A DNA stretch of 64,000 nucleotides. It comes from Thermoplasmata archaeon (GTDB lineage Archaea; Thermoplasmatota; E2; DHVEG-1). Of this stretch, positions 3,059-33,036 are shown one piece after another. The stretch is from assembly GCA_003942085.1 (NCBI GenBank), contig DQIQ01000001.1, forward strand, positions 24,950 to 88,949. Direction: 5' to 3'. The notes beneath the pieces are model-generated. The model had not been told where the DNA came from and searched no databases. It worked only from the letters and a program-made list of their open reading frames with translations. How positions within the stretch are numbered: the stretch's first letter is position 1; each line of letters begins with the position of its first letter. Made by a program: the position numbers and the translations under genes.

Positions 3059-4363
3059 CTAGGAAAACAAAATCCGTTCTACTTTTTTTGCAACGGCTTT
3101 TCGATATTTTTCATCAGTAATAAGCATAAAAGCCCAGTCCGGAGATATGCGTGAACGAATTGCTTTGGCTATCGGAGTAAACTCATCTAATGTTTTCAAT
3201 TCATCTCGGTCGATGACCTGGATATCGGTGTTGTTAATCCGAGGCTCTGCCCTCAACAATTCAGGTCGGGGGATATCAATAATGATATGACCCTTGGGGA
3301 TACGGAACGCCTCTTCCAACTCACGTTCTTTTTGGCGTCGCACTGAGACATCTTCAAGCCGCTTGACGACCTTGATTCCATCCTTATCTAAATCAAGGGG
3401 TGAGACCGCGAATGCCTGTTTGAAGAGTTCACGATATTTCAGACGTGTGACGATCTCCTGCTGAAACCGCCCCATGCCCTTCAGCGATATCATAATCTCA
3501 GCATCGGTCATCCGGAAAAACTCAAACGGCTCGGCATCTGGTATTTCTTCAAGAGCTTTGGACAACATAAGTTCCGGGATACGCACCGTCTTATGAAAAT
3601 ACACCGATGAATACATCAAAGCACGTGCCATGAGAATGTTTTCAACGACATTCACCCCTTTGCGCATCATCGTCAAATTCCCCTTATATATCATCATTGT
3701 TCTCAAGAGACGCTGAAGGTCAATCATCCCGTACGCGACACCGGTATAGTAGGCATCACGCATGAGGTAATCTAACTGATCGACATCGATGGTACTGTTC
3801 AAGAGCTGACTGAGATATGATTTCTTTGATAGTTTCCCCCGGATGATGTTGACAATTTCTTTTTCATTTACCTGATGCTTATTGAGGATTTCATGAACGG
3901 AGGGTGCGGAAATGAACGGTCTTTCTGTCGCATCCAAAACATCATAGGTCCCAAAAATCAGTTTCTCGGTAAGATCCACATGATCAACGCCAAATCGCTG
4001 CAACAGAATCGACTCCAAGGTATGCGAGAACGGACCGTGACCAATATCGTGCAATTGTGCAGCACAGGTCAGCAATTTTTTTTCCGTTTCTTTCAAACCA
4101 AGGATATCCGCAATCTGAGACGCTATCATGGAGCTGCCTAAAGAGTGCTCAAAACGAGTATGATGCGCACCAGGGAATACAAGGTGGGCAAACCCGAGTT
4201 GTTTGATGTTATGGAGGCGTTGCACCTCAGGAGTCTCTAGTAAATCAACCAGACATCCAGTGATTTTAATATCACCATGAATCGGGTCTCTGACGATTTT
4301 ATGATCTTCAACCATGTGTTTTCTAGAGCAGAAAAAGAAAAAGAGTTGATATAGTTTTGTCAC
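3059..4363 (-). CDS. HD-domain dNTP triphosphohydrolase-like protein (dGTPase/SAMHD1 family). The likely true start is an internal Met at 4315.
   Basis: RDPIHGDIKI...VQRLHNIKQLGFAHLVFPGAHHTRFEHSLGS...LHDIGHGPFSH is the HD-domain metal-binding pattern of dGTPase-like enzymes. Confidence 0.75.
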   Translation of the reverse strand: MTKLYQLFFFFCSRKHMVEDHKIVRDPIHGDIKITGCLVDLLETPEVQRLHNIKQLGFAHLVFPGAHHTRFEHSLGSSMIASQIADILGLKETEKKLLTCAAQLHDIGHGPFSHTLESILLQRFGVDHVDLTEKLIFGTYDVLDATERPFISAPSVHEILNKHQVNEKEIVNIIRGKLSKKSYLSQLLNSTIDVDQLDYLMRDAYYTGVAYGMIDLQRLLRTMMIYKGNLTMMRKGVNVVENILMARALMYSSVYFHKTVRIPELMLSKALEEIPDAEPFEFFRMTDAEIMISLKGMGRFQQEIVTRLKYRELFKQAFAVSPLDLDKDGIKVVKRLEDVSVRRQKERELEEAFRIPKGHIIIDIPRPELLRAEPRINNTDIQVIDRDELKTLDEFTPIAKAIRSRISPDWAFMLITDEKYRKAVAKKVERILFS

Positions 4364-4483
4364 TCAGATCAAGCATCCAAGATAAACTATAAAACAAACA
4401 AAATCATTAAGCATCTCAATAATAGTAGGAAAATAAACAATCACTTGTGAGGTGTCCTTATTACAAAACCAATCCTGTTTTCC

Positions 4484-4720
4484 TTGGAGCAATGCATCAA
4501 ATGCCAAGAAACAAAAGAATTGCTCGCCGGGAGAGAAGATGTCGATATCGTTACCTTCCCTCATGACCTGAATCAGTGGCGCGAGGAGGATTTTAATTTA
4601 GCAAAATCCCATGACGTATTTGAAGACCTCCAGAGAACCGCACCAATCCTCTGGCTTGACGGAGAAAAAAAAATCGGATATCTGAGAATACGAAAGTGGC
4701 TCCAAGACACCTTTAAATAA
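4484..4720 (+). CDS. Small glutaredoxin-like / thioredoxin-fold protein (single CxxC).
   Basis: It is 78 aa, has a CIKC motif near the N-terminus and a C-terminal segment that could be a glutaredoxin-like fold (impression only), and it opens the redox cluster. Confidence 0.45.
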   Translation: MEQCIKCQETKELLAGREDVDIVTFPHDLNQWREEDFNLAKSHDVFEDLQRTAPILWLDGEKKIGYLRIRKWLQDTFK

Positions 4721-4782
4721 ACCGCTTTTTACCCCTTTTTTATCCAAATATTAATTAGGGAGATATTGCTATTCGAAAACAA

Positions 4783-5193
4783 ATGGATACTCTTGAAACG
4801 TTAAAAATGAAAAAACTTGAGCAACTAAAGAAGCAGTATATGAAAGGAGGGAAAACCATGGAAAAAAAAATACCAGACACCCCAATCCATCTTCTTGATG
4901 CCGATATCGATGAAACAATAAAAAAATTTCCAACGATTGTGATCGACTGTTGGGCTCCCTGGTGCGGCCCCTGCCGTATGATCGGGCCAATCATTGAAGA
5001 ACTTGCAAAAGAGATGAAGGGAAAAATCATCTTTGGAAAGTTAAACGTTGATGAAAACCCTCTCACTTCGATGAAGTATAAAATCATGAGTATTCCGACC
5101 ATGCTCGTGTTTAAAAACGGATCTTTAGTTGATCGTTTCGTTGGCGCAATGCCCAAAGAAATGCTCATGCAGAAATTAAAACCGTTTCTATAG
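4783..5193 (+). CDS. trxA: Thioredoxin. The probable real start is MEKKIPD at 4858.
   Basis: WAPWCGPCRMIGPII active site and the MSIPTMLVFKNG cis-Pro region. Confidence 0.85.
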   Translation: MDTLETLKMKKLEQLKKQYMKGGKTMEKKIPDTPIHLLDADIDETIKKFPTIVIDCWAPWCGPCRMIGPIIEELAKEMKGKIIFGKLNVDENPLTSMKYKIMSIPTMLVFKNGSLVDRFVGAMPKEMLMQKLKPFL

Positions 5194-5204
5194 CGATTTG
5201 TCCG

Positions 5205-5750
5205 GTGATGACGATTTCAGCAATAAAAAAGCTATCTGTTACCTTCCTTGTTTTTCTTTTTGTTTTTCTCAGCATTTTTACTGGTTGTACAGAAAAAAAA
5301 GGTAATGCTGGTGAGGATTTTTCGTTTACAACCTTGGACGGTAAGATGAAACATCTAAATGATTTTTATGGGAGAATTATTGTCCTTGATTGCATGGCAG
5401 TGAACTGCCAACCCTGTATGTTTCAAATGTTCGAGCTAAAAAAAGTATCAGAAAACTATTCAACAAATAATGTCACAATCCTTTCGATAGATGTCTGGGT
5501 ATCAAGTGGAGAAACCGCATCCATGCTTCAAGACACTATCGATGCTTTCAAAAACCAGGTTAACATGACGTTAGACTGGACGTTTGGACTGGATGATCCG
5601 CAAGGAACCATTCAAAACACTTACGCTTCAGCGGGAGTACCTACTCTCTATATCTTTGATAAAAAGGGAAATATTTATTACTCCCACGTGGGTTATGAAG
5701 ATTATTCAGCGCTTGCATCTCAGCTTGATCAGATGCTGAGCAAAGTATAA
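5205..5750 (+). CDS. TlpA/ResA-like thiol-disulfide oxidoreductase, a probable lipoprotein facing outside the membrane.
   Basis: The signal peptide carries a lipobox-like LSIFTGC, and the thioredoxin-like domain has a CQPC active site (VLDCMAVNCQPCMFQ). Confidence 0.7.
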   Translation: MMTISAIKKLSVTFLVFLFVFLSIFTGCTEKKGNAGEDFSFTTLDGKMKHLNDFYGRIIVLDCMAVNCQPCMFQMFELKKVSENYSTNNVTILSIDVWVSSGETASMLQDTIDAFKNQVNMTLDWTFGLDDPQGTIQNTYASAGVPTLYIFDKKGNIYYSHVGYEDYSALASQLDQMLSKV

Positions 5751-5768
5751 ATAGGACATTAGGGAGAT

Positions 5769-6278
5769 ATGAAGACTATGACAAACAACAGAAGAATATC
5801 GATAATATTTCTCACGACAATTATTTTAGGAACATGCATTGCATCGGTCACTGCGACAGACCCGACGATTGGATCGGTCACGATTACCCCAAATGAACCA
5901 GCACCTCAATCATCTGTTAACTTTTCAGTAAACATCGTAGGGGACGGGATCTCAGCGGTATATCTGCATTATAAAGAGTGCAATGTTCAAATTTGCAAGG
6001 TTTTTAATAACATCTCGATGACAAAATTGTCGGGTAACACCTATGAAAAAAAGATAAAACTCACGTGGGATGAGGCTACCTACATTACGTATAATTTCGA
6101 GATCAATAGCAATGGTGTGTGGACGAAAACCGAGTATGTGAATGTCTCACTCAAACCAGTGACAAACGATGATGGAAACAACACAAATAATAATAAACAA
6201 CCAGGTTTTGAAATTCTTTTCTTCGTCGCAGCAGTTGGTGTTAGCGTCATCATATTAGGAAGAAAGAGATCCCGATGA
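5769..6278 (+). CDS. Secreted Ig-like protein with a PGF-CTERM archaeal sorting signal.
   Basis: It has an N-terminal signal peptide. The C-terminus reads NNNKQPGFEILFFVAAVGVSVIILGRKRSR, i.e. a PGF motif, a TM helix and a basic tail, the archaeosortase A target signature. It overlaps the next gene by 4 nt (ATGA). Confidence 0.6.
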   Translation: MKTMTNNRRISIIFLTTIILGTCIASVTATDPTIGSVTITPNEPAPQSSVNFSVNIVGDGISAVYLHYKECNVQICKVFNNISMTKLSGNTYEKKIKLTWDEATYITYNFEINSNGVWTKTEYVNVSLKPVTNDDGNNTNNNKQPGFEILFFVAAVGVSVIILGRKRSR

Positions 6279-7084
6279 AGTTTCAGCTGAAACGTCTATA
6301 CTTTCAGATTATTCTCTTTTTTACAGCAAATCTGGGCGCTGTCGGTCTAAAGACCGGGTTTTGCTACCCGTTCTTCTACTGTCAAGCCTGTCCTGCTGCC
6401 ACTTCCGCATGCCCCATACGAGCATTGGAAAACAGTGTCTACAAACAGAGCTTCGAGTGGAGATTTTTACTCTATCCGCTCCTTATCATCGGATTTTTTG
6501 GAATTACGACAGGGCGAGCTATCTGCGGCTGGGCATGCCCGATCGGAGTATTGCAACGAGGAACAGGCCGTGTTGCACGAAAAGTAAAAAGACATCCTAT
6601 CGCGCAGAGACTCGGAGCACATAGTGTGGAGAAATATCTCCGGTACACAAAGTATTTTATGTTGATTGTATTTGTTTTCTTGACCTCGCTGCTCATTGGA
6701 TTTATCTTCACCGACATCTGTCCGGTCGGGATGCTAGTGGGAACTTTCCCGATTTTGATTCTGAACCCGGGGAAGTTTGTGCCAAATTATTTTTTCCCAG
6801 TAGCCCTTGTTATTTTCGTTCTATTTATCACACTTATCTTCATTATTGAACGCGGATGGTGCCGATATTTCTGCCCGGTTGGTGCAATGCTTGGTCCGTT
6901 CAATAAAATAAGCATGCTCCACATTGAGGTTCATACCAAAGAATGTCTTCATTGTAACGTTTGTTCAGATATCTGTCCTATGGGGATTGATGTCCCAAAC
7001 ATGCATCGAGACCCCGAATGTATCCTCTGTGGAAAATGCGTCTCATCATGTCCAACGAAACAGATAACCTTTGAGAAGGTGTAA
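6275..7084 (+). CDS. Polytopic membrane 4Fe-4S ferredoxin-type protein of the NapH/MauN family.
   Basis: It has several TM helices and cysteine clusters CPVGAMLGP, CLHCNVCSDICP and CILCGKCVSSCP. Its start overlaps the upstream stop and its end overlaps the downstream start. Confidence 0.65.
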   Translation: MKFQLKRLYFQIILFFTANLGAVGLKTGFCYPFFYCQACPAATSACPIRALENSVYKQSFEWRFLLYPLLIIGFFGITTGRAICGWACPIGVLQRGTGRVARKVKRHPIAQRLGAHSVEKYLRYTKYFMLIVFVFLTSLLIGFIFTDICPVGMLVGTFPILILNPGKFVPNYFFPVALVIFVLFITLIFIIERGWCRYFCPVGAMLGPFNKISMLHIEVHTKECLHCNVCSDICPMGIDVPNMHRDPECILCGKCVSSCPTKQITFEKV

Positions 7085-7718
7085 CATGAAAAGGAGTTTT
7101 GTCCTTCAAATCGCTGCAGTCATTGTCGTCTCTGGTGCATTTGTTGGAATCCTTACTACGGCAGATGTCTACGAAGATGTCAAGGCACGTATCGTAGAAG
7201 TCCTCTGTCTGAGTTGTATCAAACTTGAGCCGAAAACAATCCAAGAATTTACTTTCAAAACAGTTGATGACGCTCCACATCCTTATTTCGTCACAGAGAA
7301 TTTAACCAAAGGCCCTGTTTTTTTACATTATAGTGAAGACGTCTGTGCCGGCTGCGAGGTCATGTTTCCCATTGTCAAACAATTGTTCAACATCGAATTT
7401 GGGAAACAAGATATGTTTTCAAAGACCGTGACTTTTGACCATGGGAATATTACGTATATTTACGTCAATCTCGACCATACCATCGATATATTAGAAAACT
7501 CATTCCCGATGTACGACAAAGACGATATCGGAGGGTTACCGATGTTCACCATCATCACCTTGGGATATGACCATGGGACCGTCAGACCGTATTTTACGAC
7601 GCTTTATGGGACGTTGAATGTTCCGACAGACGCTGAAAGATCGTCCCTTCTGCGGGAAGTTTTAACAGAAAGTATTGAGATGTATCAACAGAATAAAGCA
7701 GGGTATCAGCCAACCTAA
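7071..7718 (+). CDS. Membrane-anchored thioredoxin-fold protein (CxxC).
   Basis: It has an N-terminal TM anchor and a CAGCEVMFP CxxC motif. It is co-operonic with the NapH-like gene. Confidence 0.45.
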   Translation: MRRCNMKRSFVLQIAAVIVVSGAFVGILTTADVYEDVKARIVEVLCLSCIKLEPKTIQEFTFKTVDDAPHPYFVTENLTKGPVFLHYSEDVCAGCEVMFPIVKQLFNIEFGKQDMFSKTVTFDHGNITYIYVNLDHTIDILENSFPMYDKDDIGGLPMFTIITLGYDHGTVRPYFTTLYGTLNVPTDAERSSLLREVLTESIEMYQQNKAGYQPT

Positions 7719-7760: not shown

Positions 7761-7925
7761 TTAGATCTCGCCGTTTTTTATCTTTGTGCGGAGGATCTCG
7801 AATTGTGCCCGTGTTAATGTGCACACGTTCTTTTTTTCGCCAATGATCACCTTATCACTCCGGACATCCACGACTGGACATTTCGGAGGGACACAAACTC
7901 CATCATTGCATAATACAACTTTCAT
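7761..7925 (-). CDS. Possible 54-aa cysteine-containing small protein (below the ORF-track cutoff).
   Basis: The reverse strand reads MKVVLCNDGVCVPPKCPVVDVRSDKVIIGEKKNVCTLTRAQFEILRTKIKNGEI with four Cys. It is only hand-translated. Confidence 0.2.
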   Translation of the reverse strand: MKVVLCNDGVCVPPKCPVVDVRSDKVIIGEKKNVCTLTRAQFEILRTKIKNGEI

Positions 7926-8017: not shown

Positions 8018-9403
8018 CTAAATGTAACGGGCAATAGTGTAGTTTTTCTTATCTATCATGGAGACAATGCGAGGACCCTGCGACGTATCAACAGAATCAA
8101 CTTCTTTTACAGTCACGGTCACAGCAGACCCTGTTTTTTCTTCAAATCCTTTCTTTATGAACTGAAAAATCTCTTCAACAGAAGGCCCGATGGGTCGAAG
8201 CGCTTCATCGATTACGACCTGGATTTCAAGGGTCGTCAGATCATGTTGGATGATCTTTGTGTTCTTGACCTTGTTTGTTTTTAGCTGATAGAGGATTTTA
8301 CTGTAGATTTCTGAAAATGATGAAGGAAGCAGCACGTTTCCCCCGGGAAGATAGAGCGCCAGGTCATTTCGTCCGTACACCTTCTTGATGAGTGCACCAG
8401 TCTTGCCGCACGAACAATGCCCATCAAGGGGAGCGACAATATCGTTGATCGCAGAATAGCGAATGATCGGCGTCCCATGGCTATGGAACTTTGTGATGAC
8501 CATCTCCCCTGCTTCACCAGAGGCTACCGGTTGTCCCTTTCTCAGGAACTCGGCATAGACAAGATCAGACATGAGATGATAACTGCCTTTTTTACATTGA
8601 AAACCAATGAGACCGGATTCGGTCGCCCCATAAACCTCAAAGACCTTCGCATGAAATGTCTTTTCTATAAATAATTTCAGATACGGATCAAGGACTGAGC
8701 CGGTCGCAGCGATATATCGTGGTGAAATATTATCCCCAAATCCGGACTCTTTTTGTAAAGCAAGATGACCAAGCATCCCGACGTACCCACCGATGAACGC
8801 AGGTTGAAACTCATTGATCGCGGATACGATTTTTTTTGGATCATCGTTGGTGTTCAACCATTGAATGTTTCGAAAAATCCCCGATATATTAAAACGAGGC
8901 TGCAGCCCTCTGGTGACATAGCCACTTTCGGCAGTATGCGGCGCGAAATCCCCGATTATCGTAATCCGGTCCTTCCACACGCTCATATCGTATTCATGCA
9001 ACGTCCGTATATACGCAAAAAGACCCATGACGATATCCAACATATCGACATAAATCGGAAGAACCTTACCAGTGGTTCCTGATGTTGAAACCTCGATAAG
9101 AGAACTCTTTTTTATCTTTGACGAAACAATACCATTTGGATAGTGTCGTTTGAAGTCATCTTTTGTGATACAGGGGAGTTTCTGAAGATCATCAATGCCA
9201 GCAATGTCAGATATATGAACCCCTGCTTGCTTGTATTTCTCGTGATACAGGGGCACAGTATCAGCAAATCGAACAAGCCGTCGGAGTTGTTTATCTTGAT
9301 ATCGTCGCAGAGATTCCCCACTTATTCTATCCAACCGGTCAACATCAATCAAATACCGTTTCAGAATTTTACCAAGGAACAAAGGGTTATAGAATTGATT
9401 CAT
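8018..9403 (-). CDS. Phenylacetate-CoA ligase-like (PaaK/F390-synthetase family) adenylating enzyme. The start is taken at the internal Met (MNQFYNPL).
   Basis: It has the N-terminal PaaK-family lead-in (ESLRRYQDKQLRRLVRFADTVPLYHEKYKQAGV...LPCITKDDF) and a TSGTTGK P-loop. The 76 codons upstream of the chosen Met carry no conserved signal. Confidence 0.7.
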   Translation of the reverse strand: MNQFYNPLFLGKILKRYLIDVDRLDRISGESLRRYQDKQLRRLVRFADTVPLYHEKYKQAGVHISDIAGIDDLQKLPCITKDDFKRHYPNGIVSSKIKKSSLIEVSTSGTTGKVLPIYVDMLDIVMGLFAYIRTLHEYDMSVWKDRITIIGDFAPHTAESGYVTRGLQPRFNISGIFRNIQWLNTNDDPKKIVSAINEFQPAFIGGYVGMLGHLALQKESGFGDNISPRYIAATGSVLDPYLKLFIEKTFHAKVFEVYGATESGLIGFQCKKGSYHLMSDLVYAEFLRKGQPVASGEAGEMVITKFHSHGTPIIRYSAINDIVAPLDGHCSCGKTGALIKKVYGRNDLALYLPGGNVLLPSSFSEIYSKILYQLKTNKVKNTKIIQHDLTTLEIQVVIDEALRPIGPSVEEIFQFIKKGFEEKTGSAVTVTVKEVDSVDTSQGPRIVSMIDKKNYTIARYI

Positions 9404-9476
9404 AGAGCATCCAAAGTAGAGAGGAAATAGGTACAATTCCTTAAATAGCTGTCTCTTAATTCTCCACAGAGAAGCA

Positions 9477-10781
9477 ATGAACATACTCATCGTTGAGACC
9501 GTCTGGATGGGAGGCGCACGATACAGATTCCTTGATAAGATGCTGCTCACCGCATTCTCCATTCTTCCTACCCTGCAGGCACGGGAACTTGCTGCAATCA
9601 CCCCAAAACAACATACCATATCGGTGGTCAATGAACGATACTCACAGATTGATTATGACACCGCGTATGATGCTGTTCTGATCAATTTTGTCACCTCGAC
9701 TGCCCCACGAGCCTATGCGATTGCTGACCGCTTCCGAAAAAAAGGTGTTCCCGTCATCCTTTGCGGGTTTCATGCATCTGGACTGCCTGTTGAGGCAAAA
9801 CAACATGCAGATAGCGTCCTCATCGGCAGAAACGAATACGGCTGGTTATCGGTCCTCCAGGACATACATCAGAAAAAACTACAGCCTTTCTATCAAGCAC
9901 CACCATATGATCGCACCATGCAGCTTCCTCCAACACATGTCCAGCTCCCAGGGTTCGTCATGACTGGTGCTGTGGAAGCGACAAGAGGCTGCCCGTACCA
10001 TTGTGAGTTCTGCCCTGAGACCAACATCCCAGGTGGTTCATACCTCTTCAAACGCCCGGTTGATGAAGTGATCGATGAAATCAAAAAAATTCCTCAGAAA
10101 AACCTGATGTTCTATGACACATCGCTTACCATCGACCCGTCATACACAAAAGAATTGTTCAAAAAAATGAAAGGACTGCATAAAAAATTCTTCTGCAACG
10201 GAAACGTCGATGTCTTAGCCCATGACCCGGAACTCGTATGCCTCTCCAAAGAAGCAGGATGTGTCGCATGGCTTGTCGGGTTTGAATCAATCTGCCAGAA
10301 CACTCTTCAAGCTATCGGAAAAACAACAAACGCGGTTGATGAATACGCACTGGCAGTGCAGAATATCCACACCAATCACATGGCAGTGATCGGAGAATTC
10401 ATCTTCGGATTTGATACGGACACGCCAGAGGTATTCAAAAAAACACTCACCATGATAAAAGACCTAGACATTGACGTCGTTGATTTCTCAATACTGACAC
10501 CATTCCCAGGGACCCCCCTGTTTAATAGACTTGACAGCCAGGGGAGAATCCTGACAAAAGACTGGAAGTTCTACAACATGGGACACGCGGTTTTTACACC
10601 AAGCCACATGACCCCGAAAGAACTTGAGGAAGGCGTCCGGAGCATATTTAACGAGTTTTATGAGATGTCTTTTACCATTAAAAGAATAATCCGTGGCCTC
10701 CGATGGGGCATGTACACGTTTTTGGTTATTTTCGCACGAAACCTTGTTGCGATGATGAGCAGAGGACGACTCTCCAAATGA
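9477..10781 (+). CDS. B12-binding-domain radical SAM enzyme.
   Basis: It has an N-terminal cobalamin-binding Rossmann-like domain and the radical SAM cluster motif TRGCPYHCEFCPE. It is divergent from the PaaK-like gene. Confidence 0.75.
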   Translation: MNILIVETVWMGGARYRFLDKMLLTAFSILPTLQARELAAITPKQHTISVVNERYSQIDYDTAYDAVLINFVTSTAPRAYAIADRFRKKGVPVILCGFHASGLPVEAKQHADSVLIGRNEYGWLSVLQDIHQKKLQPFYQAPPYDRTMQLPPTHVQLPGFVMTGAVEATRGCPYHCEFCPETNIPGGSYLFKRPVDEVIDEIKKIPQKNLMFYDTSLTIDPSYTKELFKKMKGLHKKFFCNGNVDVLAHDPELVCLSKEAGCVAWLVGFESICQNTLQAIGKTTNAVDEYALAVQNIHTNHMAVIGEFIFGFDTDTPEVFKKTLTMIKDLDIDVVDFSILTPFPGTPLFNRLDSQGRILTKDWKFYNMGHAVFTPSHMTPKELEEGVRSIFNEFYEMSFTIKRIIRGLRWGMYTFLVIFARNLVAMMSRGRLSK

Positions 10782-10793
10782 GAAAAAACGGGA

Positions 10794-12284
10794 TCATATA
10801 CGTGACTTAAACACGATACTTGAGGATGTTTTCTTCCCCGTGTCATCATAAACGGTGACCGTGAGCATATGTTTTTTGAGGAAGAATGATTTTAGTGTTT
10901 TCAGTTTCGTAAAGCTAAATTCGTATGGAGCTTGCGTATCATTAGACATGACGACCCCATCAATGGAAAATTCAACTTTTGCCACAGCCGAATCATCACT
11001 CGCATTCACCGTAACAATTTTCTTTCCCAACAGGACGGTCGTATTATGTAAATAATTATTGAGAATCAATCCAATTAATTTTCTTTGTTGGAGACGTTCC
11101 AGTCTTGGTTTGCCGTTCAGATAGATTTTTCCTTTCAGAGGGGACGTTATCTGTAGCTGTGGAGGTAGATTTCCTTTTTCTACTATTTTTGTAGCGTTGG
11201 TCGCATCAGCATAGTGCGCATCAAAGGGGTTCTTGCTCGGAGGCTGCGCATATCCTTGCTGCTTTTCAGAGCTAAATACCACTCCGACGATCATCAGGTT
11301 TTCATAGTCGTATGCAGAGATGTCTTTGGTTTCTGAGAATGTTAAGTTTTTATTTCCATCCACAGAGACGTCATTTATCATCAGATACTCAAGAAAACCA
11401 TAGGAAAAGGGTTTGCTATCATATCCTGTCAAATGTGACACAATCTCTGTCAAATAAAGTTTCAGTTGACCAGAATACGTATCGTTTCCCTTGTTCTCTA
11501 CTAGCGCATGAACGGTTACCTCCTGGGTGGTATTCGAATATTGTGCGGTGATGGTGACCTTGATTTTTGGGACCGTCCGTGCTTGCGCGGCTGTAATTGC
11601 CGCAGTATAGGCTGATTCAGGATTGTCTCCGCCCATGATGACCGAATATCCACCATCAATGAAGACTGTAGGGAATCCAAAGACATTGTACTCCTTAAAA
11701 AGACGATCTGCGGTTTGGGTATTGGTGGCGTTTATGAGGCTGATGTAGTAAAATCGATAATTATGGCTCTCGTAGAGGGTATGAAGGATGTTTGCGACAT
11801 TGGGGCAGTTGTTGCACCAGGTCGCGGTTGCTTCTTCGATGAATACGGTATGGATAAGGGTTTCATTCCCCGGGTTGCCTCCACCTGGATTCACCGTGAT
11901 GGTATAATATCGAGAGCCATCCATAGAAGGATCCCCGACGGGTCCGTTTCCTGCAGCGTCATCTGCAGTGATATAGTAATAATAGTTACTAGTGGCACTT
12001 GAAGGGATATCAAGGGTGGTACTCCCATTAAGGATCGATGTTGATCTCCAATCTGCTACATCAGCAGCTTTATAATATAAAGTCGCAACTGTGACGTTCA
12101 CATCATCAGTAAAAATAGCAGAAATAGTGGCGGTCTGACCCGCGGTGACCGTAAGGTTTCCTGTGATATTGTCAATCTGCGGAGGTTCTGTATCCTTGTC
12201 ACCAGTAAATACAATGACATACGCTGATGCGCCAAGGAGCATTCCTATGATGATAAGGAGTAATATTTTTCCAATTAGTCTCAT
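10794..12284 (-). CDS. Secreted or surface protein with N-terminal Ig-like domains and a thioredoxin-like CNNC domain.
   Basis: It has a signal or anchor (LLLIIIGMLLGASAYVIV), many NxT/S sequons, and an ATWCNNCPNV...FGFPTVFIDGG thioredoxin-like segment. A TATA-like element (ctttatatatt) lies upstream. Confidence 0.5.
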   Translation of the reverse strand: MRLIGKILLLIIIGMLLGASAYVIVFTGDKDTEPPQIDNITGNLTVTAGQTATISAIFTDDVNVTVATLYYKAADVADWRSTSILNGSTTLDIPSSATSNYYYYITADDAAGNGPVGDPSMDGSRYYTITVNPGGGNPGNETLIHTVFIEEATATWCNNCPNVANILHTLYESHNYRFYYISLINATNTQTADRLFKEYNVFGFPTVFIDGGYSVIMGGDNPESAYTAAITAAQARTVPKIKVTITAQYSNTTQEVTVHALVENKGNDTYSGQLKLYLTEIVSHLTGYDSKPFSYGFLEYLMINDVSVDGNKNLTFSETKDISAYDYENLMIVGVVFSSEKQQGYAQPPSKNPFDAHYADATNATKIVEKGNLPPQLQITSPLKGKIYLNGKPRLERLQQRKLIGLILNNYLHNTTVLLGKKIVTVNASDDSAVAKVEFSIDGVVMSNDTQAPYEFSFTKLKTLKSFFLKKHMLTVTVYDDTGKKTSSSIVFKSRI

Positions 12285-13420: not shown

Positions 13421-14332
13421 ATGAAACGATATAACCTTACTCATCTGCAGAAACTTGAAGCAGAATCAATCTACGTCATCCGTGAGGTCGCTGCACAATT
13501 CGAACGACCGGTGCTGCTCTTCTCAGGTGGAAAAGACTCAATCGTTCTTGGACATCTTTCCCGAAAGGCATTTTATCCTGCGAAAATCCCCTATCCTTTT
13601 CTGCATATTGATACCGGACATAACTTCCCTGAAGTACTCCTTTTCAGAGATGCTTTTGCAAAAAACCTTGACATCAGAATACTTGTTGGCTCTGTTCAAC
13701 GATCCATTGACACCGGACGGGTCAAAGAAGAAACCGGAAAACATGCGAGCCGGAACTATCTTCAGTCGATCACGCTGCTTGACACCATCCATGAGTATAA
13801 ATTCGACGCGGCAATCGGTGGCGGGCGAAGGGATGAGGAAAAATCCCGTGCCAAAGAACGATTCTTCTCTCATCGCAATGATTTTGGACAATGGGACCCG
13901 AAAAACCAACGGCCTGAGCTATGGGATCTCTACAATGGACGAAAACACCATGGTGAACATTTCCGGGTATTTCCGTTGAGCAACTGGACTGAGCTTGATA
14001 TCTGGCAGTACATCCTCAAAGAACACATTCAGATCCCTCTGATTTATTTCTCCCATACCCGAGACTGTATCATCCGGGACGGTGTCATCTACGCTTACTC
14101 TGACTACCTCCATCTTGATGATGCTGAAAAGAAAACAGTACAACCCATGACGGTTCGGTTCCGCACGGTCGGAGACATGACTTGTACAGGGGCAGTACAA
14201 TCAAAGGCACATACGCTTGAAGACATCGTCCGAGAGGTCGCTACCTATCGCATCTCAGAACGGGGAACCCGAGCTGACGACCGTCGATCGGAAAACTCTC
14301 TTGAGGACCGGAAAAAGGAGGGATACTTCTAG
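13421..14332 (+). CDS. cysD: Sulfate adenylyltransferase subunit 2.
   Basis: LEAESIYVIREVAAQFERPVLLFSGGKDS PP-loop. It is followed 2 nt later by cysN. Confidence 0.85.
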   Translation: MKRYNLTHLQKLEAESIYVIREVAAQFERPVLLFSGGKDSIVLGHLSRKAFYPAKIPYPFLHIDTGHNFPEVLLFRDAFAKNLDIRILVGSVQRSIDTGRVKEETGKHASRNYLQSITLLDTIHEYKFDAAIGGGRRDEEKSRAKERFFSHRNDFGQWDPKNQRPELWDLYNGRKHHGEHFRVFPLSNWTELDIWQYILKEHIQIPLIYFSHTRDCIIRDGVIYAYSDYLHLDDAEKKTVQPMTVRFRTVGDMTCTGAVQSKAHTLEDIVREVATYRISERGTRADDRRSENSLEDRKKEGYF

Positions 14333-14334
14333 CA

Positions 14335-15644
14335 TGGATGAAAAAAGCTATCTTGATATGGATCTACTTCGATTCACCACTGCTGGAAGCGTTGATGACG
14401 GAAAAAGCACGCTGATCGGCAGGCTTCTTTACGACAGTAAAACCCTCTTTGAGGACCAGCTGGAAAACCTAGAGCGACTGAGCCAGCAACGCGGCGAAGA
14501 ACTCAACCTTGCCTTGCTCACCGATGGCCTGCGGGCAGAACGAGAACAAGGGATCACCATCGATGTCGCATATCGATACTTTGCAACCCCGGTTCGAAAA
14601 TTCATCATCGCAGACACCCCTGGCCACATCCAGTATACCCGCAACATGGTTACCGGAGCATCTACGGCGAACCTTGCATTGATCCTTGTGGACGCTCGTA
14701 ATGGAGTCACCGAACAAACCCACCGTCATATTTTCCTTGCCTCGCTCCTCCAGATCCCACACTTCGCCATCTGCATAAACAAGATGGATCTTGTCAGCTA
14801 CAAACAAGCGATATATGACGCCATCAAAAACGAAATACAGGATTTCATCTCAAAGCTCGCAGTCCCAGATATCACGTTCATTCCTATCAGTGCGTTACTT
14901 GGCGATAACGTGGTCCATGCCTCAAAAAACATGCAGTGGTATCATGGTCCTACCTTGCTATACCATCTTGAAGACGTCCACATCGGCAGTGACGAAAACC
15001 TTGTCGATTGTCGGTTCCCCGTCCAATTTGTCATCAGACCACGATCCGACACTTACCATGATTACCGAGGGTACGCAGGAAAAATCGCAAGCGGGATCTT
15101 CAAACCTGGGGACAGTGTCACTATTCTTCCATCCGGTTTTTCGACGACGATCAAATCGATTGAAGGCCCACAAGGAGAAATCACTGAAGCGTTCCCTCCG
15201 ATGTCTGTCGTCATGCAGCTCACTGACGATCTTGATATCAGCCGCGGGGATATGCTTGTCCGCCAGCATAACACTCCTTTTATCGGTCAGAACCTTGATT
15301 TCATGATCTGCTGGATGAACATAAAACCACTCACCGCGGGGACCAGGTACATTGTACGCCACACTACCAGGGAAACAAAAGGGATAATCAAAGAGATCCA
15401 ATATAAAATCGATATCAACACGTTGCATCGGATCCCTGATGCAACAAAGCTAGAGCTCAACGAAATCGGACGTATCTCGATGAGAACGGCACAACCATTG
15501 TTCTATGATAGTTATCAGCATAATCGAGCCACTGGCAGCATCATCCTCATCGATGAAACAACCAATGAGACGGTTGGTGCAGGGATGATCCGGGAACCTT
15601 CCGCTGCTGTTTCTGAAAAGAAAAAAAAGGAACAAGAAAAATGA
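14335..15644 (+). CDS. cysN: Sulfate adenylyltransferase subunit 1 (GTPase).
   Basis: The GTPase motifs are FTTAGSVDDGKST G1, DTPGH and NKMD. Its stop overlaps the cysC start (ATGA). Confidence 0.85.
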
Positions 15645-16177
15645 ACAAACATCAGGGTTTCACTATCTGGTTTACAGGTCTGCCCTGCTGCGGAAAAACA
15701 ACCATCGCAGACCAATTAGCCATACTTCTAAAAAAGAAGGATTACATGGTAGAACGACTCGATGGTGATATCGTTCGCCAGGGCTTTGCCAATGATCTCG
15801 GTTTTTCGGAAAAAGACAGAGATGAAAATATCAAACGAGTCACTTTTATTGCAAAAATGCTCACCCGTAACAACGTAGTGGTGCTCGCAAGCTTTGTATC
15901 ACCGTACAAAAAACAACGAAGAAAAGCACGAAAGGAAATAAAAAATTTCATCGAAGTGTATGTAAAATGCCCTGTGAAGATCTGCATGAAGCGCGACGTC
16001 AAAGGCATGTACCAAAAAGCCCTTGAAGGAAAAATCAAGCATTTCACGGGTGTCGATGATCCGTACGAAGAACCTGAGCATCCGGAGCTCATCCTGAATA
16101 CCGATACAGAATCCGTTGAAGAAAGCGTCAGAAAGGTTTTAGAAAAAATAGAAGAACTCGGGTATATCACCCGGTAA
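15641..16177 (+). CDS. cysC: Adenylylsulfate (APS) kinase.
   Basis: FTIWFTGLPCCGKTTIA P-loop. It is translationally coupled to cysN. Confidence 0.85.
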   Translation: MNKHQGFTIWFTGLPCCGKTTIADQLAILLKKKDYMVERLDGDIVRQGFANDLGFSEKDRDENIKRVTFIAKMLTRNNVVVLASFVSPYKKQRRKARKEIKNFIEVYVKCPVKICMKRDVKGMYQKALEGKIKHFTGVDDPYEEPEHPELILNTDTESVEESVRKVLEKIEELGYITR

Positions 16178-16186
16178 GGAAAAGAC

Positions 16187-17152
16187 ATGGGAATCAACCC
16201 CGATGAAGAATTCCTCCAGGATCTACAGCAGGTTTCCTTCCAACCGGTTTTTATCCTCGGGCTGCATCGTTCAGGAACCAGTATTTTATACAAGATGCTC
16301 TCCGCGACAGGGTCCTTTAATCCGGTCACCGCGTATCATCTAATCAATTACCATGAACTGCTTGCAAATCATCATCTGAAAAAGGAAGAAGCTGCAAAAC
16401 AGCACCTGACGCAATCATTCAAAAATAAAGGCTTGACGGACAGAGGAATTGACCAATTGAAACTAACCGCGGATTTTGCAGAAGAATACGGGTTTCTCCT
16501 CAATACCCGGACCATGCAGATGTTCCTTACCAGAAAAAACGTCGCACTCTTTACAGAGATGTGCAAAAAAATCCAGTACATCGCAGGGAATGACAAACCA
16601 ATCCTTCTTAAGAATCCCTATGATTTTCTGAATTTCCTCTCCATCAAACAGGTGTTCCCCAACGCCAGATTTGTTTTTATCCATCGCCATCCGCTCAAGA
16701 CCATAAGTTCGACATTGAACGCCATCCGGATGATATTGAACGAAAAAAACCCATATACTGCACGGTTGTCCAGGTTATATGACAGATCCTATGACAATCC
16801 CCTGCTGCTTTGGCCGCTTCGGTTCATCTTTTGCACCATCCCAGAATGGGGCGTGGTCCTTATCACCAGAATCACTGCAAAAGCGGTAAAGTATTATCTG
16901 AAAAATATTGAGAAATTACCGTCAGAGGATTACCTCTCCATTACCTATGAAGAGCTATGTGAACATCCGCAGGAAACTTTGGAATACATCATGGAAAGAC
17001 TGTCCCTGCGCATGAGCGAAAAAGTCGATGTCGCATCACTTATGAGCCCGCGTACCGTAGACGTCGATGGTTCTGTTCAAAAACTTCGAGTATATATCTA
17101 TAAGTCAATGAAGTCTTATTTTGATATGTTTCATTATCTGAGAGAGGGATAG
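16187..17152 (+). CDS. PAPS-dependent sulfotransferase family protein.
   Basis: PVFILGLHRSGTSILYKML is the 5'-PSB loop of sulfotransferases and FVFIHRHPLKTISS is a 3'-PB-like motif. It sits directly downstream of cysDNC, and no cysH is present. Confidence 0.65.
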   Translation: MGINPDEEFLQDLQQVSFQPVFILGLHRSGTSILYKMLSATGSFNPVTAYHLINYHELLANHHLKKEEAAKQHLTQSFKNKGLTDRGIDQLKLTADFAEEYGFLLNTRTMQMFLTRKNVALFTEMCKKIQYIAGNDKPILLKNPYDFLNFLSIKQVFPNARFVFIHRHPLKTISSTLNAIRMILNEKNPYTARLSRLYDRSYDNPLLLWPLRFIFCTIPEWGVVLITRITAKAVKYYLKNIEKLPSEDYLSITYEELCEHPQETLEYIMERLSLRMSEKVDVASLMSPRTVDVDGSVQKLRVYIYKSMKSYFDMFHYLREG

Positions 17153-26760: not shown

Positions 26761-28515
26761 TTATTTGTAACCAATAATAAGAAGTGGATGATACTCACTG
26801 TATTCTTTTGAGTGGTAGCATGAGCATTCTTGGCTCCCACTTGTGTCCACCATCCTCCATCCGTAATTAGGAGCACCGCCAAGGTAAAACAATTGGATGT
26901 CTCCAGTAAGGTTCCAGAAAACCCAAGTATTGAGCGTCGATGGCACGATTGCTAATGAAGATGGTTCTGGGTCATATGATGGTTGGGTATTCCAGGTGAC
27001 TGTTCCTTCATCCCAATCGCTGGTGACTTTATAGGCGTTCACTTGATGGCCACCAGGGTTTCCATCCGAGCTATGAAAATAGTACAGTTGAAGGGAGGCA
27101 TACTGGATGGTCACATTAGATGGAAGAGTGCTTATATTATATTTGATGAGTCCGTCCAATTCCAACCAAGAGATAGAAATGTGAGATCTGATATCAATCG
27201 GATCACTGGTCCCTGCATTACTATTAGGACTTACTTCTGAAATTGTGGCATCATCAGTTGGTTCAAGGACTACGGTATTTTCAGAACTAGTCCTGAATGA
27301 AAACATTTTTTTTGACCAGTACCTTCCATCGGTGACATTCACAAACCACGTATAAGAGGTAAAATAATCAAGGCCACTGATAGGAACAGTGTATCGACCG
27401 TTGCCGACGCCAGTCCCAGCTCCTGATCCGATATCTGGTTGTGTCTCAACCGTCCAATTCATCAGATCCCCCTGATAATCGGTCAAATCAAAACTCACAT
27501 TTGACGTAGATATTGGTACAAACTCAGCGTTTTGGTTTGGTGACGGATTCCTAATTAATGGAAACAACGTCTCTGTAGTAAATGTGCGTGTTCTCCCCAC
27601 CGGCGTCCCCGAAGTATCCCCTTCGTAGATCAGGATCAACCAAGAATATGTGGTGCCGTTCTGCAACGGATGAACAATGGGAATGGTGTAGGTTCCATTT
27701 GGTATCAAAGTAGCGGTTCCACCACCGATGTCCGGACTTGTTGTGACCTTATAACTCATGAGATCACCTTCAATATCGTGGATTTTAAAACTAAGCTCGG
27801 TGAGGGAAAGAGAAACGTTTTGTTCTCCATCTGCAGGTGAAATATCGGAAATATATGGGAATTGGTTATTTTGATTTAGATACCACTTACAGCCAAGATG
27901 ACTAGCAATTTTCTCTATTGATTCAATGATAAGAGCCCCGATAGTTTCGCATAGATAAAGATCCCATCGCCACCCACTTAATAACATATACGCGCCCACA
28001 GCATACAAAGGAATCATAAGTGTGCAAATTATTGGGAAATGCCAACTTGATGCATCCTTACTTTCACAATCGCATCCTGAGTTTGACAACTGCATTATGT
28101 CTTCTTGTAATTTAACGTTCTTTTCTATGACAGCATTTATTTCTTGTTGTAATTCAGGATTAATCAATTGATGTGCCCGGATCATTGATTGAATCCTTGA
28201 TTTACTAGAAAACTTTGAGAGAACCAACCCGATCAAATACATTCGTTTTAGTTGATTCTTTGTTAAAACAGGAATCTCTGATGTTGGGGATATTCCTCTA
28301 CTCATCTGGGATTTGAGAATGATTCTCTGGATCTCTCTGTTATTTGTTATATCCAAGATGGTTTGGAATAAAAGCTCTCTCTGATTGACTGTTTCTTTTT
28401 TGGCTTGTCGATGTGATGTTTGAACCGTCTGAAATCCAACAACATTGCTCAACGAAGCAAGAATGAGAACAACAACGGCAACAATACTGACTCCAATCAG
28501 AGGATACTTCTTCAT
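26761..28515 (-). CDS. Surface protein with an N-terminal anchored CDCE module, two Ig-like repeats and a C-terminal LPSN...VTWNTxP (DNRLRE/CBM-like) module.
   Basis: N-terminal anchor MKKYPLIGVSIVAVVVLILASL, CDCE, a hydrophobic segment, a repeated GDLMxxxVxTxPDIGxG...Y(T/S)W motif, many NxS/T sequons, and a C-terminal STLPSNVTIQYASLQLYY...VTSDWDEGTVTWNTQPSY...HPLLIIGYK. Confidence 0.6.
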   Translation of the reverse strand: MKKYPLIGVSIVAVVVLILASLSNVVGFQTVQTSHRQAKKETVNQRELLFQTILDITNNREIQRIILKSQMSRGISPTSEIPVLTKNQLKRMYLIGLVLSKFSSKSRIQSMIRAHQLINPELQQEINAVIEKNVKLQEDIMQLSNSGCDCESKDASSWHFPIICTLMIPLYAVGAYMLLSGWRWDLYLCETIGALIIESIEKIASHLGCKWYLNQNNQFPYISDISPADGEQNVSLSLTELSFKIHDIEGDLMSYKVTTSPDIGGGTATLIPNGTYTIPIVHPLQNGTTYSWLILIYEGDTSGTPVGRTRTFTTETLFPLIRNPSPNQNAEFVPISTSNVSFDLTDYQGDLMNWTVETQPDIGSGAGTGVGNGRYTVPISGLDYFTSYTWFVNVTDGRYWSKKMFSFRTSSENTVVLEPTDDATISEVSPNSNAGTSDPIDIRSHISISWLELDGLIKYNISTLPSNVTIQYASLQLYYFHSSDGNPGGHQVNAYKVTSDWDEGTVTWNTQPSYDPEPSSLAIVPSTLNTWVFWNLTGDIQLFYLGGAPNYGWRMVDTSGSQECSCYHSKEYSEYHPLLIIGYK

Positions 28516-28584
28516 CCTTTTCTTCCTATATGAAAAATAAAGACCTCTTGTCTATTTAAAATCTTCCTTCCAAGTAATTTACCT

Positions 28585-28813
28585 GTATTTAGGAGTTCAA
28601 ATCATTTTTTAGTCTCATGGCGATTTTCTTCTGGGAAAAGAGAAAAAAAGTGCAGGGGAAGGGATTTGAACACTAATTTACTAGTATACTAGTATCTCTC
28701 TCCTCAGGGAGATTTTGATTTTATTAAATTACTAGTAAGTATTCTAATTTCAGCGCCCGACTGTTGGCTTGTTACGTTAGTCAGTTAGCTGTTGTTTTTC
28801 TTAATCTGAAGTA
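28585..28813. repeat. Non-coding copy B of the segmental duplication.
   Basis: See 26505-26760. The similarity continues into 28814-29119. Confidence 0.6.
28650..28671 (-). repeat. att-like exact 22-nt copy of the tRNA-Leu 3' end.
   Basis: gtgcaggggaagggatttgaac, followed by actaatttactagtatactagta and aaattactagtaag. Confidence 0.65.
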
Positions 28814-29119
28814 TTATTTATAACCGATAATAAGAAGAGGATGAAACTCACTATAGTCTTTTGAGTAGAAGCACGAGCATTTCTGAGTTCCACTCGTGTC
28901 CATCATCCTCCATCCGTAATTGGGAGCGCTACTATTAACAAACAATTGGACGTCTCCAGTAAGGTTCCAAAAAACCCAGCTATTAATCGTCGCTGGCATG
29001 ATAGCAAATGAAGATGGTTCTGTGACATAGGACGGTCGGGTATTCCACGTGACGTTTTTTTCATTCCAATCACTCGTAATTCGATATGCGTTCACCTGAT
29101 GTCCGCTGGGGGTTCCCAT
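28814..29119 (-). pseudogene. Detached C-terminal LPSN/VTWNTxP-module fragment, probably the frameshifted 3' part of the beta-helix gene upstream.
   Basis: The 101-aa ORF GHQVNAYRITSDWNEKNVTWNTRPSY...HPLLIIGYK is about 75% identical to the C-terminus of the 26761-28515 product. It has no signal peptide and sits one frame off, 8 nt after the stop of 29128-30144. Confidence 0.45.
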
Positions 29120-29127
29120 TCAAGTTT

Positions 29128-30144: not shown

Positions 30145-30192
30145 TGATTTACCTCTTTATTCTATGTCTAGAATGGGTTAGGCTACAATTAA

Positions 30193-30816: not shown

Positions 30817-30947
30817 TACTTTCCGCCCTTATAAATACTTTATAACAATAATCCCCTATAAAAACGTTTATTTCATTATTGATTAAGTCTCTGCAAACAT
30901 TATAGTATCTGGAGGCAAGAATTAACAGAGTTGTTTTTTTTAATTTG

Positions 30948-32849: not shown

Positions 32850-33036
32850 AGGTTTTTTCTTCCGTTCAATACATATATCGGATATTCTATATATAGATTT
32901 CCATTTGATAAACTCAATTTTTTATTGATACTGTTCTCTTTTTCGCATAAAATAGCTCATTAAAAGTTTGAAAAAAAAACAAACTATTTAAATTAATTTA
33001 AATTACCATTTCATATTAATTGGGGAGTGAAAAAAT

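Follow-up and report, generated by a model that had tools for sequence, protein, structure and literature searches.

How reducing power from the cytoplasm might reach thioredoxin-fold proteins outside the cell membrane is the question raised by six tandem genes in a 64,000-nucleotide stretch of contig DQIQ01000001.1 from a Thermoplasmata archaeon (this whole stretch is referred to here as the window). To our knowledge, every characterised reductant route to such extracytoplasmic proteins uses the cysteine relay of DsbD, CcdA or ScsB. The proteins fed in this way serve cytochrome c maturation, disulfide isomerisation, and the repair of sulfenic acids and methionine sulfoxide. The six genes, called g1 to g6 here, encode a small glutaredoxin-like protein, a thioredoxin, a TlpA-like lipoprotein, a PGF-CTERM protein, a NapH-like membrane iron-sulfur (Fe-S) protein and a membrane thioredoxin-like protein. 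Our reading, which we hold to be the probable one, is that they make up a transmembrane reducing system, a functional analogue of DsbD in which a NapH-type Fe-S module replaces the Cys-relay core.

The preliminary description of this DNA had noted that no transporter of the CcdA or DsbD type was present, and this holds for the 64-kb window as well as for the window taken together with 83 related loci (1.12 Mb). The search for multi-helix open reading frames (ORFs) in the window turned up only an EamA transporter and a DUF2178 protein, with no core of the PF02683 or PF13386 type. A phmmer search of the ORFs in the 1.12 Mb with E. coli DsbD (from NC_000913.3), which has the limited sensitivity of a single-sequence query, left the beta domain unmatched. 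The only proteins matched by DsbD were those in the g3 position, through its gamma domain (residues 409-545).

Conservation and layout of the gene cluster

One genome per GTDB species was scanned with a degenerate pattern, which gave 103 relatives of g5, and 80 of these loci were kept; with three loci fetched earlier they make up a synteny set of 83. The 80 loci are all from Thermoplasmatota, Thermoplasmatales or 'Euryarchaeota' metagenome-assembled genomes, including SM1-50, SG8-52-3 and two complete chromosomes (CP070724.1 and CP070798.1). Gene order is held in the 83 loci down to 56% g5 identity. g6 lies immediately 3′ of g5 in all 79 loci with enough sequence, and in 79 loci an ORF of the g4 type adjoins g5. 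Of the genes that lie upstream in the same orientation, g2 and g3 are each found in 59 of the 61 testable loci and g1 in 46 of the 61. The preliminary description had pointed to gene order in other archaea as a check on the cluster, and the order is kept in about 80 species genomes. Because of this conservation the cluster, as judged from synteny, is a selected unit far beyond chance and not an accident, and the counts show g5, g6, g4, g3 and g2 to be evolutionarily locked together in their gene order.

These data also bear on the simplest alternative, that an ordinary thioredoxin and glutaredoxin pair happens to sit beside unconnected membrane proteins. TlpA-like genes are common, and g1, g4 and g6 have no curated family (none of the three matches Pfam or NCBIfam), both of which would fit with unrelated neighbours. 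We give this explanation almost no credence, as the order kept in about 80 species, the fusions of g5 with g6-, g4- and TlpA-like domains described below, and the recurrence of the same partners in distant archaea and bacteria all speak against it.

All six plus-strand ORFs of the preliminary description were found, and the gaps between them from g1 to g6 are 62, 11, 18, −4 and 1 nt. The last three genes had been said to overlap, which needs correcting, as only g4 and g5 do so (by 4 nt). The most likely start of g6 is the ATG at 7086, one base past the g5 stop, since the identical 210-amino-acid database protein DSN98_00215 (P0121) begins there, and the overlap is therefore limited to g4 and g5. 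The start of g1 probably has to be moved as well, from TTG 4484 to ATT 4460. A conserved first strand, ITKPILFSLE, lies upstream of TTG 4484, ATT 4460 aligns with the methionine of the homologues, and between 4460 and 4484 there is no ATG, GTG or TTG start that would preserve this strand. The g1 genes of close relatives (L004, L006 and L021) are likewise without a canonical start, which suggests that g1 uses a non-canonical start codon. A promoter scan gave 10 promoter-like sites against 9.7 expected; it relied on a bacterial-type promoter and terminator consensus and is uninformative for an archaeon.

The NapH-like membrane protein and its outer-face cysteines

Besides two Fer4_5 segments (49.8 bits), g5 shows a plan of four helices with two CX3CP motifs and, towards the C-terminus, two CxxCxxCxxxCP motifs, at positions that align with the cysteines of E. 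coli NapH. It had been called a NapH/MauN-type protein, and of this name the plan of helices and motifs stands while the family cutoff and the gene context do not support it, so we use 'NapH-like'. The best curated family is TIGR02163 (NapH/MauN) with 101.4 bits against a cutoff of 213, and the relatives of g5 score 72-93 bits to the same model; the NapH model NF007013 gives 85 bits against a cutoff of 234, and no NCBIfam model covers the g5 subfamily. No nap or mau genes (napG/napA or a mau cluster) were found in the window or in the four homologous neighbourhoods read, the other related loci having been checked only for counterparts of the window's cluster genes.

Among 40 homologues all 17 cysteines of g5 are invariant. 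The mean number of lysines plus arginines in these homologues places the N-terminus (2.9 in 8 residues) and loop 2 (11.0) inside, and loop 1 (3.2 in 37 residues) and loop 3 (0.8) outside. Hydropathy and these counts together predict that the C-terminal ferredoxin domain is also inside. This predicted layout, with both termini in the cytoplasm, is the one attributed to NapH. An AlphaFold model of g5 made with 40 close homologues had a predicted local distance difference test (pLDDT) of 55.4 and was used neither for geometry nor for fold search.

Searching 1.84 billion representative proteins with the g5 profile gave 9,275 matches at E ≤ 1e-3 and 181 at E ≤ 1e-30. We fetched 151 relatives from this search and aligned them, along with E. 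coli NapH (from NC_000913.3), to the g5 profile. Of the cysteines on the predicted outer face, C36 is kept in 138 of the 151 relatives, C39 in 125, C46 in 140 and C149 in 131. C39 and C149 covary, being C/C 118 times and S/D 7 times. There is also an optional pair, C30/C145, which is C/C in 53 sequences; C145 almost never occurs without C30. The outer-face cysteines are all missing from E. coli NapH, in which the eight ferredoxin cysteines and the two CX3CP motifs are preserved, and in this alignment the set of C36, C39, C46 and C149, with the optional C30/C145, separates the subfamily from NapH. A Cys-Pro signature recurs in g5 (C39P, C46P, C149P, C88P and C200P).

Another possibility is metal handling in the manner of CcoG, TlpA and Sco, with g5 as a reductase for Cu(II) or some other metal and with the thioredoxin-like and immunoglobulin (Ig)-like proteins as metallochaperones. 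In CcoG an Ig-like domain on the outside is joined to a NapH-like core, TlpA aids the assembly of copper sites in rhizobia, and g5 weakly matches both Fer4_18 and CcoG. The score to the CcoG/RdxA/FixG model TIGR02745 is, however, 36.2 bits against a cutoff of 316.7, the conserved residues of g4 and g6 are Cys pairs with no His/Met metal motifs, and no gene for Sco, PCuAC, a P-type ATPase or a heme-copper oxidase is found in the window. What the window does encode is PFOR, an Mvh-type NiFe hydrogenase and an ADP-forming acyl-CoA synthetase, and the organism therefore appears to be a strict ferredoxin-based anaerobe, which also counts against metal handling of this kind. We consider it very unlikely, and the copper/CcoG reading was rejected on the scores, the missing His/Met motifs and the gene context. 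A flavinylated NapH-like system of the NosR/RdhC type was rejected as well, for lack of the flavin mononucleotide (FMN) motif [S/T]GA[S/T] in g3 to g6; no FMN_bind or ApbE match was seen among the scanned ORFs of the window.

Thioredoxin-fold proteins, fusions and the helix plus CxxC partner

The proteins expected in the cytoplasm are g1 and g2, for which no membrane helix and no signal sequence are predicted. The identification of g2 as a thioredoxin is sound, with WCGPC present, 117 bits to TIGR01068 (cutoff 96.8) and 94.9 bits to Pfam Thioredoxin. For g1, the label of glutaredoxin-like agrees with its CxxC and TAP (cis-Pro-like) motifs but not with the match to Pfam Glutaredoxin, which is not significant even with the extended N-terminus included (14.3 bits, gathering score 22.9, E 0.05). 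g3 has a single N-terminal hydrophobic segment ending at a lipobox-like Cys (FTGC), and its matches to AhpC-TSA (40 bits) and Redoxin (39.4 bits, with cutoffs of about 26) agree with the earlier view of it as a TlpA-like protein with CQPC, though it falls below the cutoffs of the equivalog models ResA, TlpA and DsbE. Counterparts of g3 have CxPC-type motifs, of which CQPC is the commonest, and 38 of 59 have a lipobox-like sequence.

g6 is predicted to have a basic N-terminus and one helix, with its thioredoxin domain outside. The AlphaFold model (pLDDT 80.5) has the thioredoxin order of elements (E78-83, H88-101, E111-128, H134-143, E152-174 and H182-206), with CAGC at the N-terminus of a helix and an invariant Pro preceding a strand, which agrees with the earlier description of a membrane thioredoxin-like protein with CAGC. 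According to this model the C-terminal domain has a thioredoxin fold. In the homologues C41LSC44, C87AGC90 and P152 are all invariant. Foldseek against the PDB gave thioredoxins, ResA and DsbF as top matches, none of them significant (best E 0.045).

g4 is identical to the 166-amino-acid database protein DSN98_00205 and has a signal sequence and a tail made up of QPGFE, a helix and GRKRSR. It scores 19.1 to NCBIfam Loki-CTERM (cutoff 19.9), Pfam PGF-CTERM matches 5 of 32 homologues (best E 5.8e-5), and 94-100% of 78 homologues keep PGFE. The family was gathered from the ORFs upstream of g5 at 79 loci, a word-indexed search having given just 5 relatives. It is fast-evolving, and across these loci only P41, P44, E70, C71, C76 and the PGFE-helix-RKR tail are conserved, with the spacing of the Cys pair ranging from x4 to x9. 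In some homologues the region of this pair reads ECNxxTGxCYP, and in E. coli DsbD-alpha it reads QGCADAGFCYPP (confirmed against PDB 1JPE). We propose that g4 carries a redox-active disulfide and plays the role of DsbD-alpha.

Fusion proteins were counted among the same 151 relatives of g5. In 34 of them TlpA/ResA-type Redoxin domains follow the ferredoxin domain, mostly WCGPC-like and some with two. One helix is predicted between the ferredoxin and Redoxin domains in 33 of the fusions and three in the other. The number is odd in all 34, so the ferredoxin and thioredoxin domains are predicted to lie on opposite sides of the membrane. An arrangement with the Fe-S clusters and the CxxC domains on the same, cytoplasmic side, which the preliminary description had considered as evidence to the contrary, was found in none of the 34 fusions. 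Taken with the gene order, these predictions show both the genetic coupling of the components and their opposite-side topology.

Other fusions join the remaining parts of the cluster. P0253, P0396, P0256 and P0258 combine the NapH-like module with a helix, CLGC and a g6-like domain (hidden Markov model E 1e-16 to 9e-25); P0253 is labelled Thermoplasmata by NCBI, and in P0256 and P0258 the chain closes with a further, g4-like domain (phmmer 1.3e-9 and 1.1e-4) and a helix. P0315 has an added DsbD_N-like domain with an E of 8.5e-5, just below cutoff. On the cytoplasmic input side, an NAD(P)H-flavoprotein module composed of Fer4_20 and Pyr_redox_2 (GltD-like) forms the N-terminal part of P0322 and P0386.

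The last two proteins are useful in weighing the possibility that the module is the same and membrane quinol is the donor, in which case the NapH-like protein would oxidise quinol, and the ferredoxin domain, thioredoxin and glutaredoxin would be used elsewhere (in maturation or regulation). The plan of four helices, two CX3CP motifs and two [4Fe-4S] clusters is common to g5 and NapH, and the membrane modules of NapH and RdhC have been proposed to be quinol-oxidising (PMC5928378, PMC8238504). The cytoplasmic flavoprotein modules of P0322 and P0386 argue against this, as do the co-encoding of thioredoxin in 59 of 61 loci and the lack of quinone-related genes in the cluster. Typical quinol potentials are also too high for reducing CGPC-type disulfides. 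Overall, a quinol donor seems unlikely to us.

Flow in the opposite direction has to be considered too. The cluster would then be a disulfide-forming machine, an anaerobic counterpart of DsbB/VKOR that passes electrons from surface oxidases through the Fe-S protein to cytoplasmic acceptors. In its favour, electrons can in principle run either way along an Fe-S relay, the conserved Cys pair of g4 could form a disulfide, and many Cys-containing surface proteins are encoded in the window. The active sites, however, are WCGPC, CxPC and CAGC rather than CPHC-type, the fused domains are of the TlpA/ResA kind, a family of reductases, a cytoplasmic thioredoxin is co-encoded, and the fusions to an NAD(P)H module indicate an input of reductant. 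CGPC, CxPC and CAGC are reductase-type active sites, unlike those of DsbA-type oxidases, and by this analogy the CxxC types of the cluster favour a reductase role. We therefore regard an oxidase as distinctly unlikely.

To see which partners accompany the NapH-like protein elsewhere, gene neighbourhoods were read for seven unfused relatives and one fusion protein. L086, from a distant archaeon, has a g6 homologue with a helix, CYGCLGLNP, CKPC and a cis-Pro motif 3′ of the NapH-like gene. The start of the same NapH-like gene is overlapped by 4 nt by the gene for a secreted protein (L086:814-2355) that has a DUF1223-type thioredoxin domain (CDPC), Ig/fn3 domains with C-x5-C-Y, a YTACTGSMCYSNP motif and a PGF-CTERM tail, and which looks like a merged counterpart of g3, or of the window gene g10, with g4. 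g6-like genes (helix, CxSCLG and thioredoxin domain) are found immediately 5′ of the NapH-like gene in L095 and L092 and in partial form in L088, and the NapH-like gene of L089, L092 and L094 has TlpA-like neighbours.

In all four bacterial loci (L089, L090, L093 and L094) a helix plus CxxC element is found just upstream of the NapH-like gene. These loci and the TlpA fusions are called bacterial from their neighbours (PBP5/Peptidase_S11, HU and MarR) and from the CD1871A family. The element begins with a basic N-terminus and a helix and, some 20 residues further on, ends in C-[LT]-[ES]-C-I-G-[IL]-G-stop, in proteins of 46-48 amino acids; in L090 it is the C-terminus of the upstream ORF and not a separate small ORF. 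Three of the four match NF040920 (CD1871A family) with 40-62 bits (cutoff 32), and the one in L093 scores 17.5 bits. In L089 a 48-amino-acid ORF of this family (3844-3990, NF040920 51 bits) lies uncalled between the TlpA-like and NapH-like genes, and CD1871A-type mini-genes are probably often overlooked by gene callers.

The N-terminus of g6 (MKRS, a helix, 17 residues and LCLSCI) has the same layout as these bacterial mini-proteins. NF040920 does not match g6 residues 1-55 at E up to 1, and an hhalign comparison of the archaeal and bacterial modules gave a probability of 72% and an E of 3.4e-5, with the similarity confined to the CxxC motif. We read g6 as a helix plus CxxC element fused to a thioredoxin domain. 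In the neighbourhoods read, this element constantly accompanies the NapH-like subfamily, and from these sequences we read the recurring core as a NapH-like protein with outer cysteines, a helix plus CxxC element and an outer thioredoxin domain. Three things go beyond the preliminary description, namely the fusion proteins, the signature of outer-face cysteines and this helix plus CxxC partner.

Proposed electron route, surrounding genes and significance

The proposal that an Fe-S protein links the cytoplasm to outer thioredoxin-fold proteins had already been made in the preliminary description, and it gains support from synteny, the fusions, the opposite-side topology and the outer-face cysteines. 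We infer the donor, the direction of the electrons, the way they cross the membrane and the substrates as follows. Electrons would enter through the pair of [4Fe-4S] clusters and both CX3CP motifs on the cytoplasmic face. The donor could be ferredoxin (PFOR and an Mvh-type hydrogenase being present in the organism), the co-encoded thioredoxin or glutaredoxin or, in those relatives that have one fused, an NAD(P)H flavoprotein. The electrons would traverse the four-helix module of g5, by way of additional Fe-S clusters or of dithiol/disulfide pairs, and leave at the outer Cys cluster. This would reduce first the membrane-proximal CLSC of g6 and then its CAGC domain, and g6 in turn would reduce the Cys pair of g4 and the TlpA-like lipoprotein g3, which would serve surface proteins, perhaps, as the preliminary description suggested, the Cys-containing ones encoded nearby.

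The Cys-Pro signature of g5 would suit cluster ligands, and an exit site resembling ferredoxin:thioredoxin reductase (FTR) would result. FTR and HdrB are precedents for moving from one-electron Fe-S chemistry to two-electron disulfide reduction at a Cys-ligated cluster. By analogy, the outer Cys set (four plus two) together with a CxxC would fit such a site. FTR and Hdr differ in being soluble and cytoplasmic and have no sequence relationship to g5, and the outer-face cluster here is only hypothetical.

The proposed job is the same as that of DsbD, CcdA and ScsB, which is to bring cytoplasmic reducing power to outer thioredoxin-fold proteins (CcmG, ResA, TlpA and DsbC). The modular logic is also that of DsbD, a membrane core with an outer thioredoxin-like gamma domain and an outer beta-sandwich alpha domain with a Cys pair, and in such a mapping beta would correspond to g5, gamma to g6 and alpha to g4. 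Further likenesses are the co-encoded thioredoxin as a possible donor and the existence of single-chain versions (P0256 and P0258). Unlike in DsbD and CcdA, the core is a four-helix NapH-type Fe-S protein with two cytoplasmic [4Fe-4S] clusters and no homology in the membrane domain; the cluster also has the additional helix plus CxxC element, and homology between g4 and DsbD-alpha is not established.

Several other known systems resemble parts of the cluster. With NapH and MauN it has in common the four helices, the two CX3CP motifs and the C-terminal pair of [4Fe-4S] motifs, whereas the partners of g5 are thioredoxin-fold proteins rather than those of NapH (with NapG), and C30, C36, C39, C46 and C149 lie on its outer face. 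The membrane module and the idea of a modular device are common to the NosR and PceC/RdhC systems, but the outer partner here is a thioredoxin/CxxC chain and not an FMN domain. The CD1871A family has the layout of the g6 N-terminus, although in g6 this element runs on into a thioredoxin domain. Meheust et al. (2021) described NapH-like proteins as a modular transmembrane electron-transfer apparatus with ApbE-flavinylated FMN domains and noted functional parallels between flavinylated and thioredoxin-like mediators; a pairing of NapH-like proteins with thioredoxins is not described there (PMC8238504). Within the incomplete coverage of our literature search, we found neither a description of a NapH-like plus thioredoxin system nor a published function for CD1871/CD1871A. 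The CcdA-Etrx-MsrAB pathways of S. pneumoniae (PMC3914529) likewise have surface thioredoxin-family lipoproteins fed from the cytoplasm. They differ in using CcdA, and no Msr gene was noticed in the g1-g6 cluster. Repair or reduction of surface proteins is, by this analogy, a possible physiological role for g3 and g6.

A number of points weigh against a reducing system of this design and keep our confidence in check. The canonical NapH is a quinol dehydrogenase, and membrane quinol could be the donor; it is only by adjacency that thioredoxin and glutaredoxin are candidate donors. g1 is missing in about a quarter of the loci, and g3 is missing from L001 and L002. An Fe-S cluster on the outer face would pose a problem of biogenesis. 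Buttet et al. (2018) reported no more than 8 Fe per molecule of NosR, and the CX3CP motifs may therefore be dithiol/disulfide pairs and not cluster sites (PMC5928378). The scheme as a whole is built from sequences and predicted models; PDB matches to g5 cover only the ferredoxin part, and there is no solved structure of a NapH-type membrane domain. For the g6 fold the support is its model and the weak Foldseek scores. The Cys pairs of g4 and DsbD-alpha do align in hhalign, but weakly (E 0.018, probability 2.6%), Pfam DsbD_N is found in 2 of 32 g4 homologues with a weak E of 0.14, and the g4 profile searched against the PDB gave no DsbD match, making g4 as DsbD-alpha a lead and not a matter of membership. 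The failure to find DsbD or CcdA applies to the 1.12 Mb of sequence in the window and related loci. Lastly, directly 3′ of the NapH-like gene in L095 there is a 169-amino-acid multi-helix protein (L095:2125-2634) with CSAC in its first helix and CPAC, which has no Pfam or NCBIfam match and might be a further membrane thiol component.

The coordinates of the cluster and of one nearby gene are given in Table 1.

Table 1. Positions in the window of the g1-g6 cluster, its main motifs and domains, and a nearby thioredoxin-like gene.
Feature	Position	Strand	Description
g1	4460..4720	+	small glutaredoxin/NrdH-like redoxin, CIKC motif, probably cytoplasmic; start codon probable
g2	4783..5193	+	thioredoxin, WCGPC codons 4963-4974, predicted cytoplasmic; alternative start ATG 4858
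g3	5205..5750	+	TlpA/ResA-type thiol-disulfide oxidoreductase, predicted extracytoplasmic; lipobox-like FTGC; CQPC 5406-5417
g4	5769..6278	+	predicted secreted PGF-CTERM-anchored protein; invariant Cys pair C71/C76 (5979-5996)
g5	6275..7084	+	NapH-like membrane Fe-S protein, four helices, N- and C-termini predicted inside
g5 inner CX3CP motifs	C84/C88 (6524-6541), C196/C200 (6860-6877)	+	
g5 outer-face Cys	C30/C36/C39/C46 (6362-6415), C149 (6719-6724)	+	
g5 cytoplasmic 2x[4Fe-4S] ferredoxin domain	6944-7054	+	
g6 N-terminal module	7086..7232	+	basic N-terminus, one helix, ~17-residue linker, invariant CLSC (7206-7217) predicted at the outer surface of the membrane
g6 thioredoxin-fold domain	7233..7718	+	predicted extracytoplasmic; invariant CAGC (7344-7355); cis-Pro-type GGxPMF
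Possible client/accessory protein	10794..12284	-	signal-anchored; thioredoxin-like WCNNC...FPT domain + Big_7 Ig domain

The last protein in the table has its gene close to the cluster in 46 of 83 loci and may, with low certainty, be another client or component. Convergent with g6 on the minus strand is an ORF of 54 amino acids with four cysteines (7761-7925; MKVVLCNDGVCVPPKCPVV...) that has no family match and is conserved in 45 of the 83 related loci, at 51-93% identity (67-93% in all but one). Also adjoining the cluster are genes for a CapK/PaaK-like adenylating enzyme (8018-9631, minus strand) and a B12-binding-type radical S-adenosylmethionine (SAM) enzyme (9477-10781, plus strand), as they do in 42-43 of 83 loci. 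The longest ORFs of the two overlap by 155 bp, the CapK-like homologues are 458-460 amino acids long, and the true start of the 8018-9631 gene is probably internal. P0385, a distant NapH-like relative, has at its cytoplasmic end a CapK-like domain that matches the product of this gene (phmmer 1.2e-7).

Further along the plus strand, genes for sulfation stand in a row at 14217-17152 (a CysN-like GTPase, adenosine 5′-phosphosulfate (APS) kinase and a sulfotransferase), and an arylsulfotransferase at 55671-57485 (plus strand) is counted with this set. A block of large secreted or surface proteins is encoded at 26761-39645, with CBM96, NosD/beta-helix, a pyrroloquinoline quinone (PQQ) propeller with PKD and Big_7, and a 2202-amino-acid M28 peptidase with PKD and LamG domains. 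Two ORFs there, 26761-28515 and 28814-29119, have near-identical Cys-containing tails (DTSG[ST]Q[EK]CSC..SK.YSE.HPLLIIGYK).

The data point to a second solution, unrelated to DsbD and built on the NapH-type Fe-S module, which benthic Thermoplasmatota have in operon form and many relatives, some of them with bacterial-type gene neighbours, as fusions in a single chain. Beyond this archaeon, it is possible that the cluster belongs to a third, Fe-S-based class of transmembrane thiol-disulfide conduit that is unrelated to DsbD/CcdA and widespread in anaerobic bacteria and archaea, a wider claim that we make tentatively and would put at somewhat short of even. The minimal form of such a conduit would have three parts, a NapH-like protein with outer cysteines, a helix plus CxxC subunit (CD1871A or the g6 N-terminus) and an outer thioredoxin domain, and its outer site would be FTR-like, with a cluster beside a redox-active disulfide at the external membrane surface. 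If this is true, it would give the CD1871A-family mini-proteins and the CX3CP membrane module their first function, and provide a role for many proteins annotated merely as '4Fe-4S binding protein'. The fusions and Cys motifs would be a handle on the membrane module common to NapH, NosR and RdhC, and a conduit of this kind would account for reduced surface thiols in anaerobes without ccdA.

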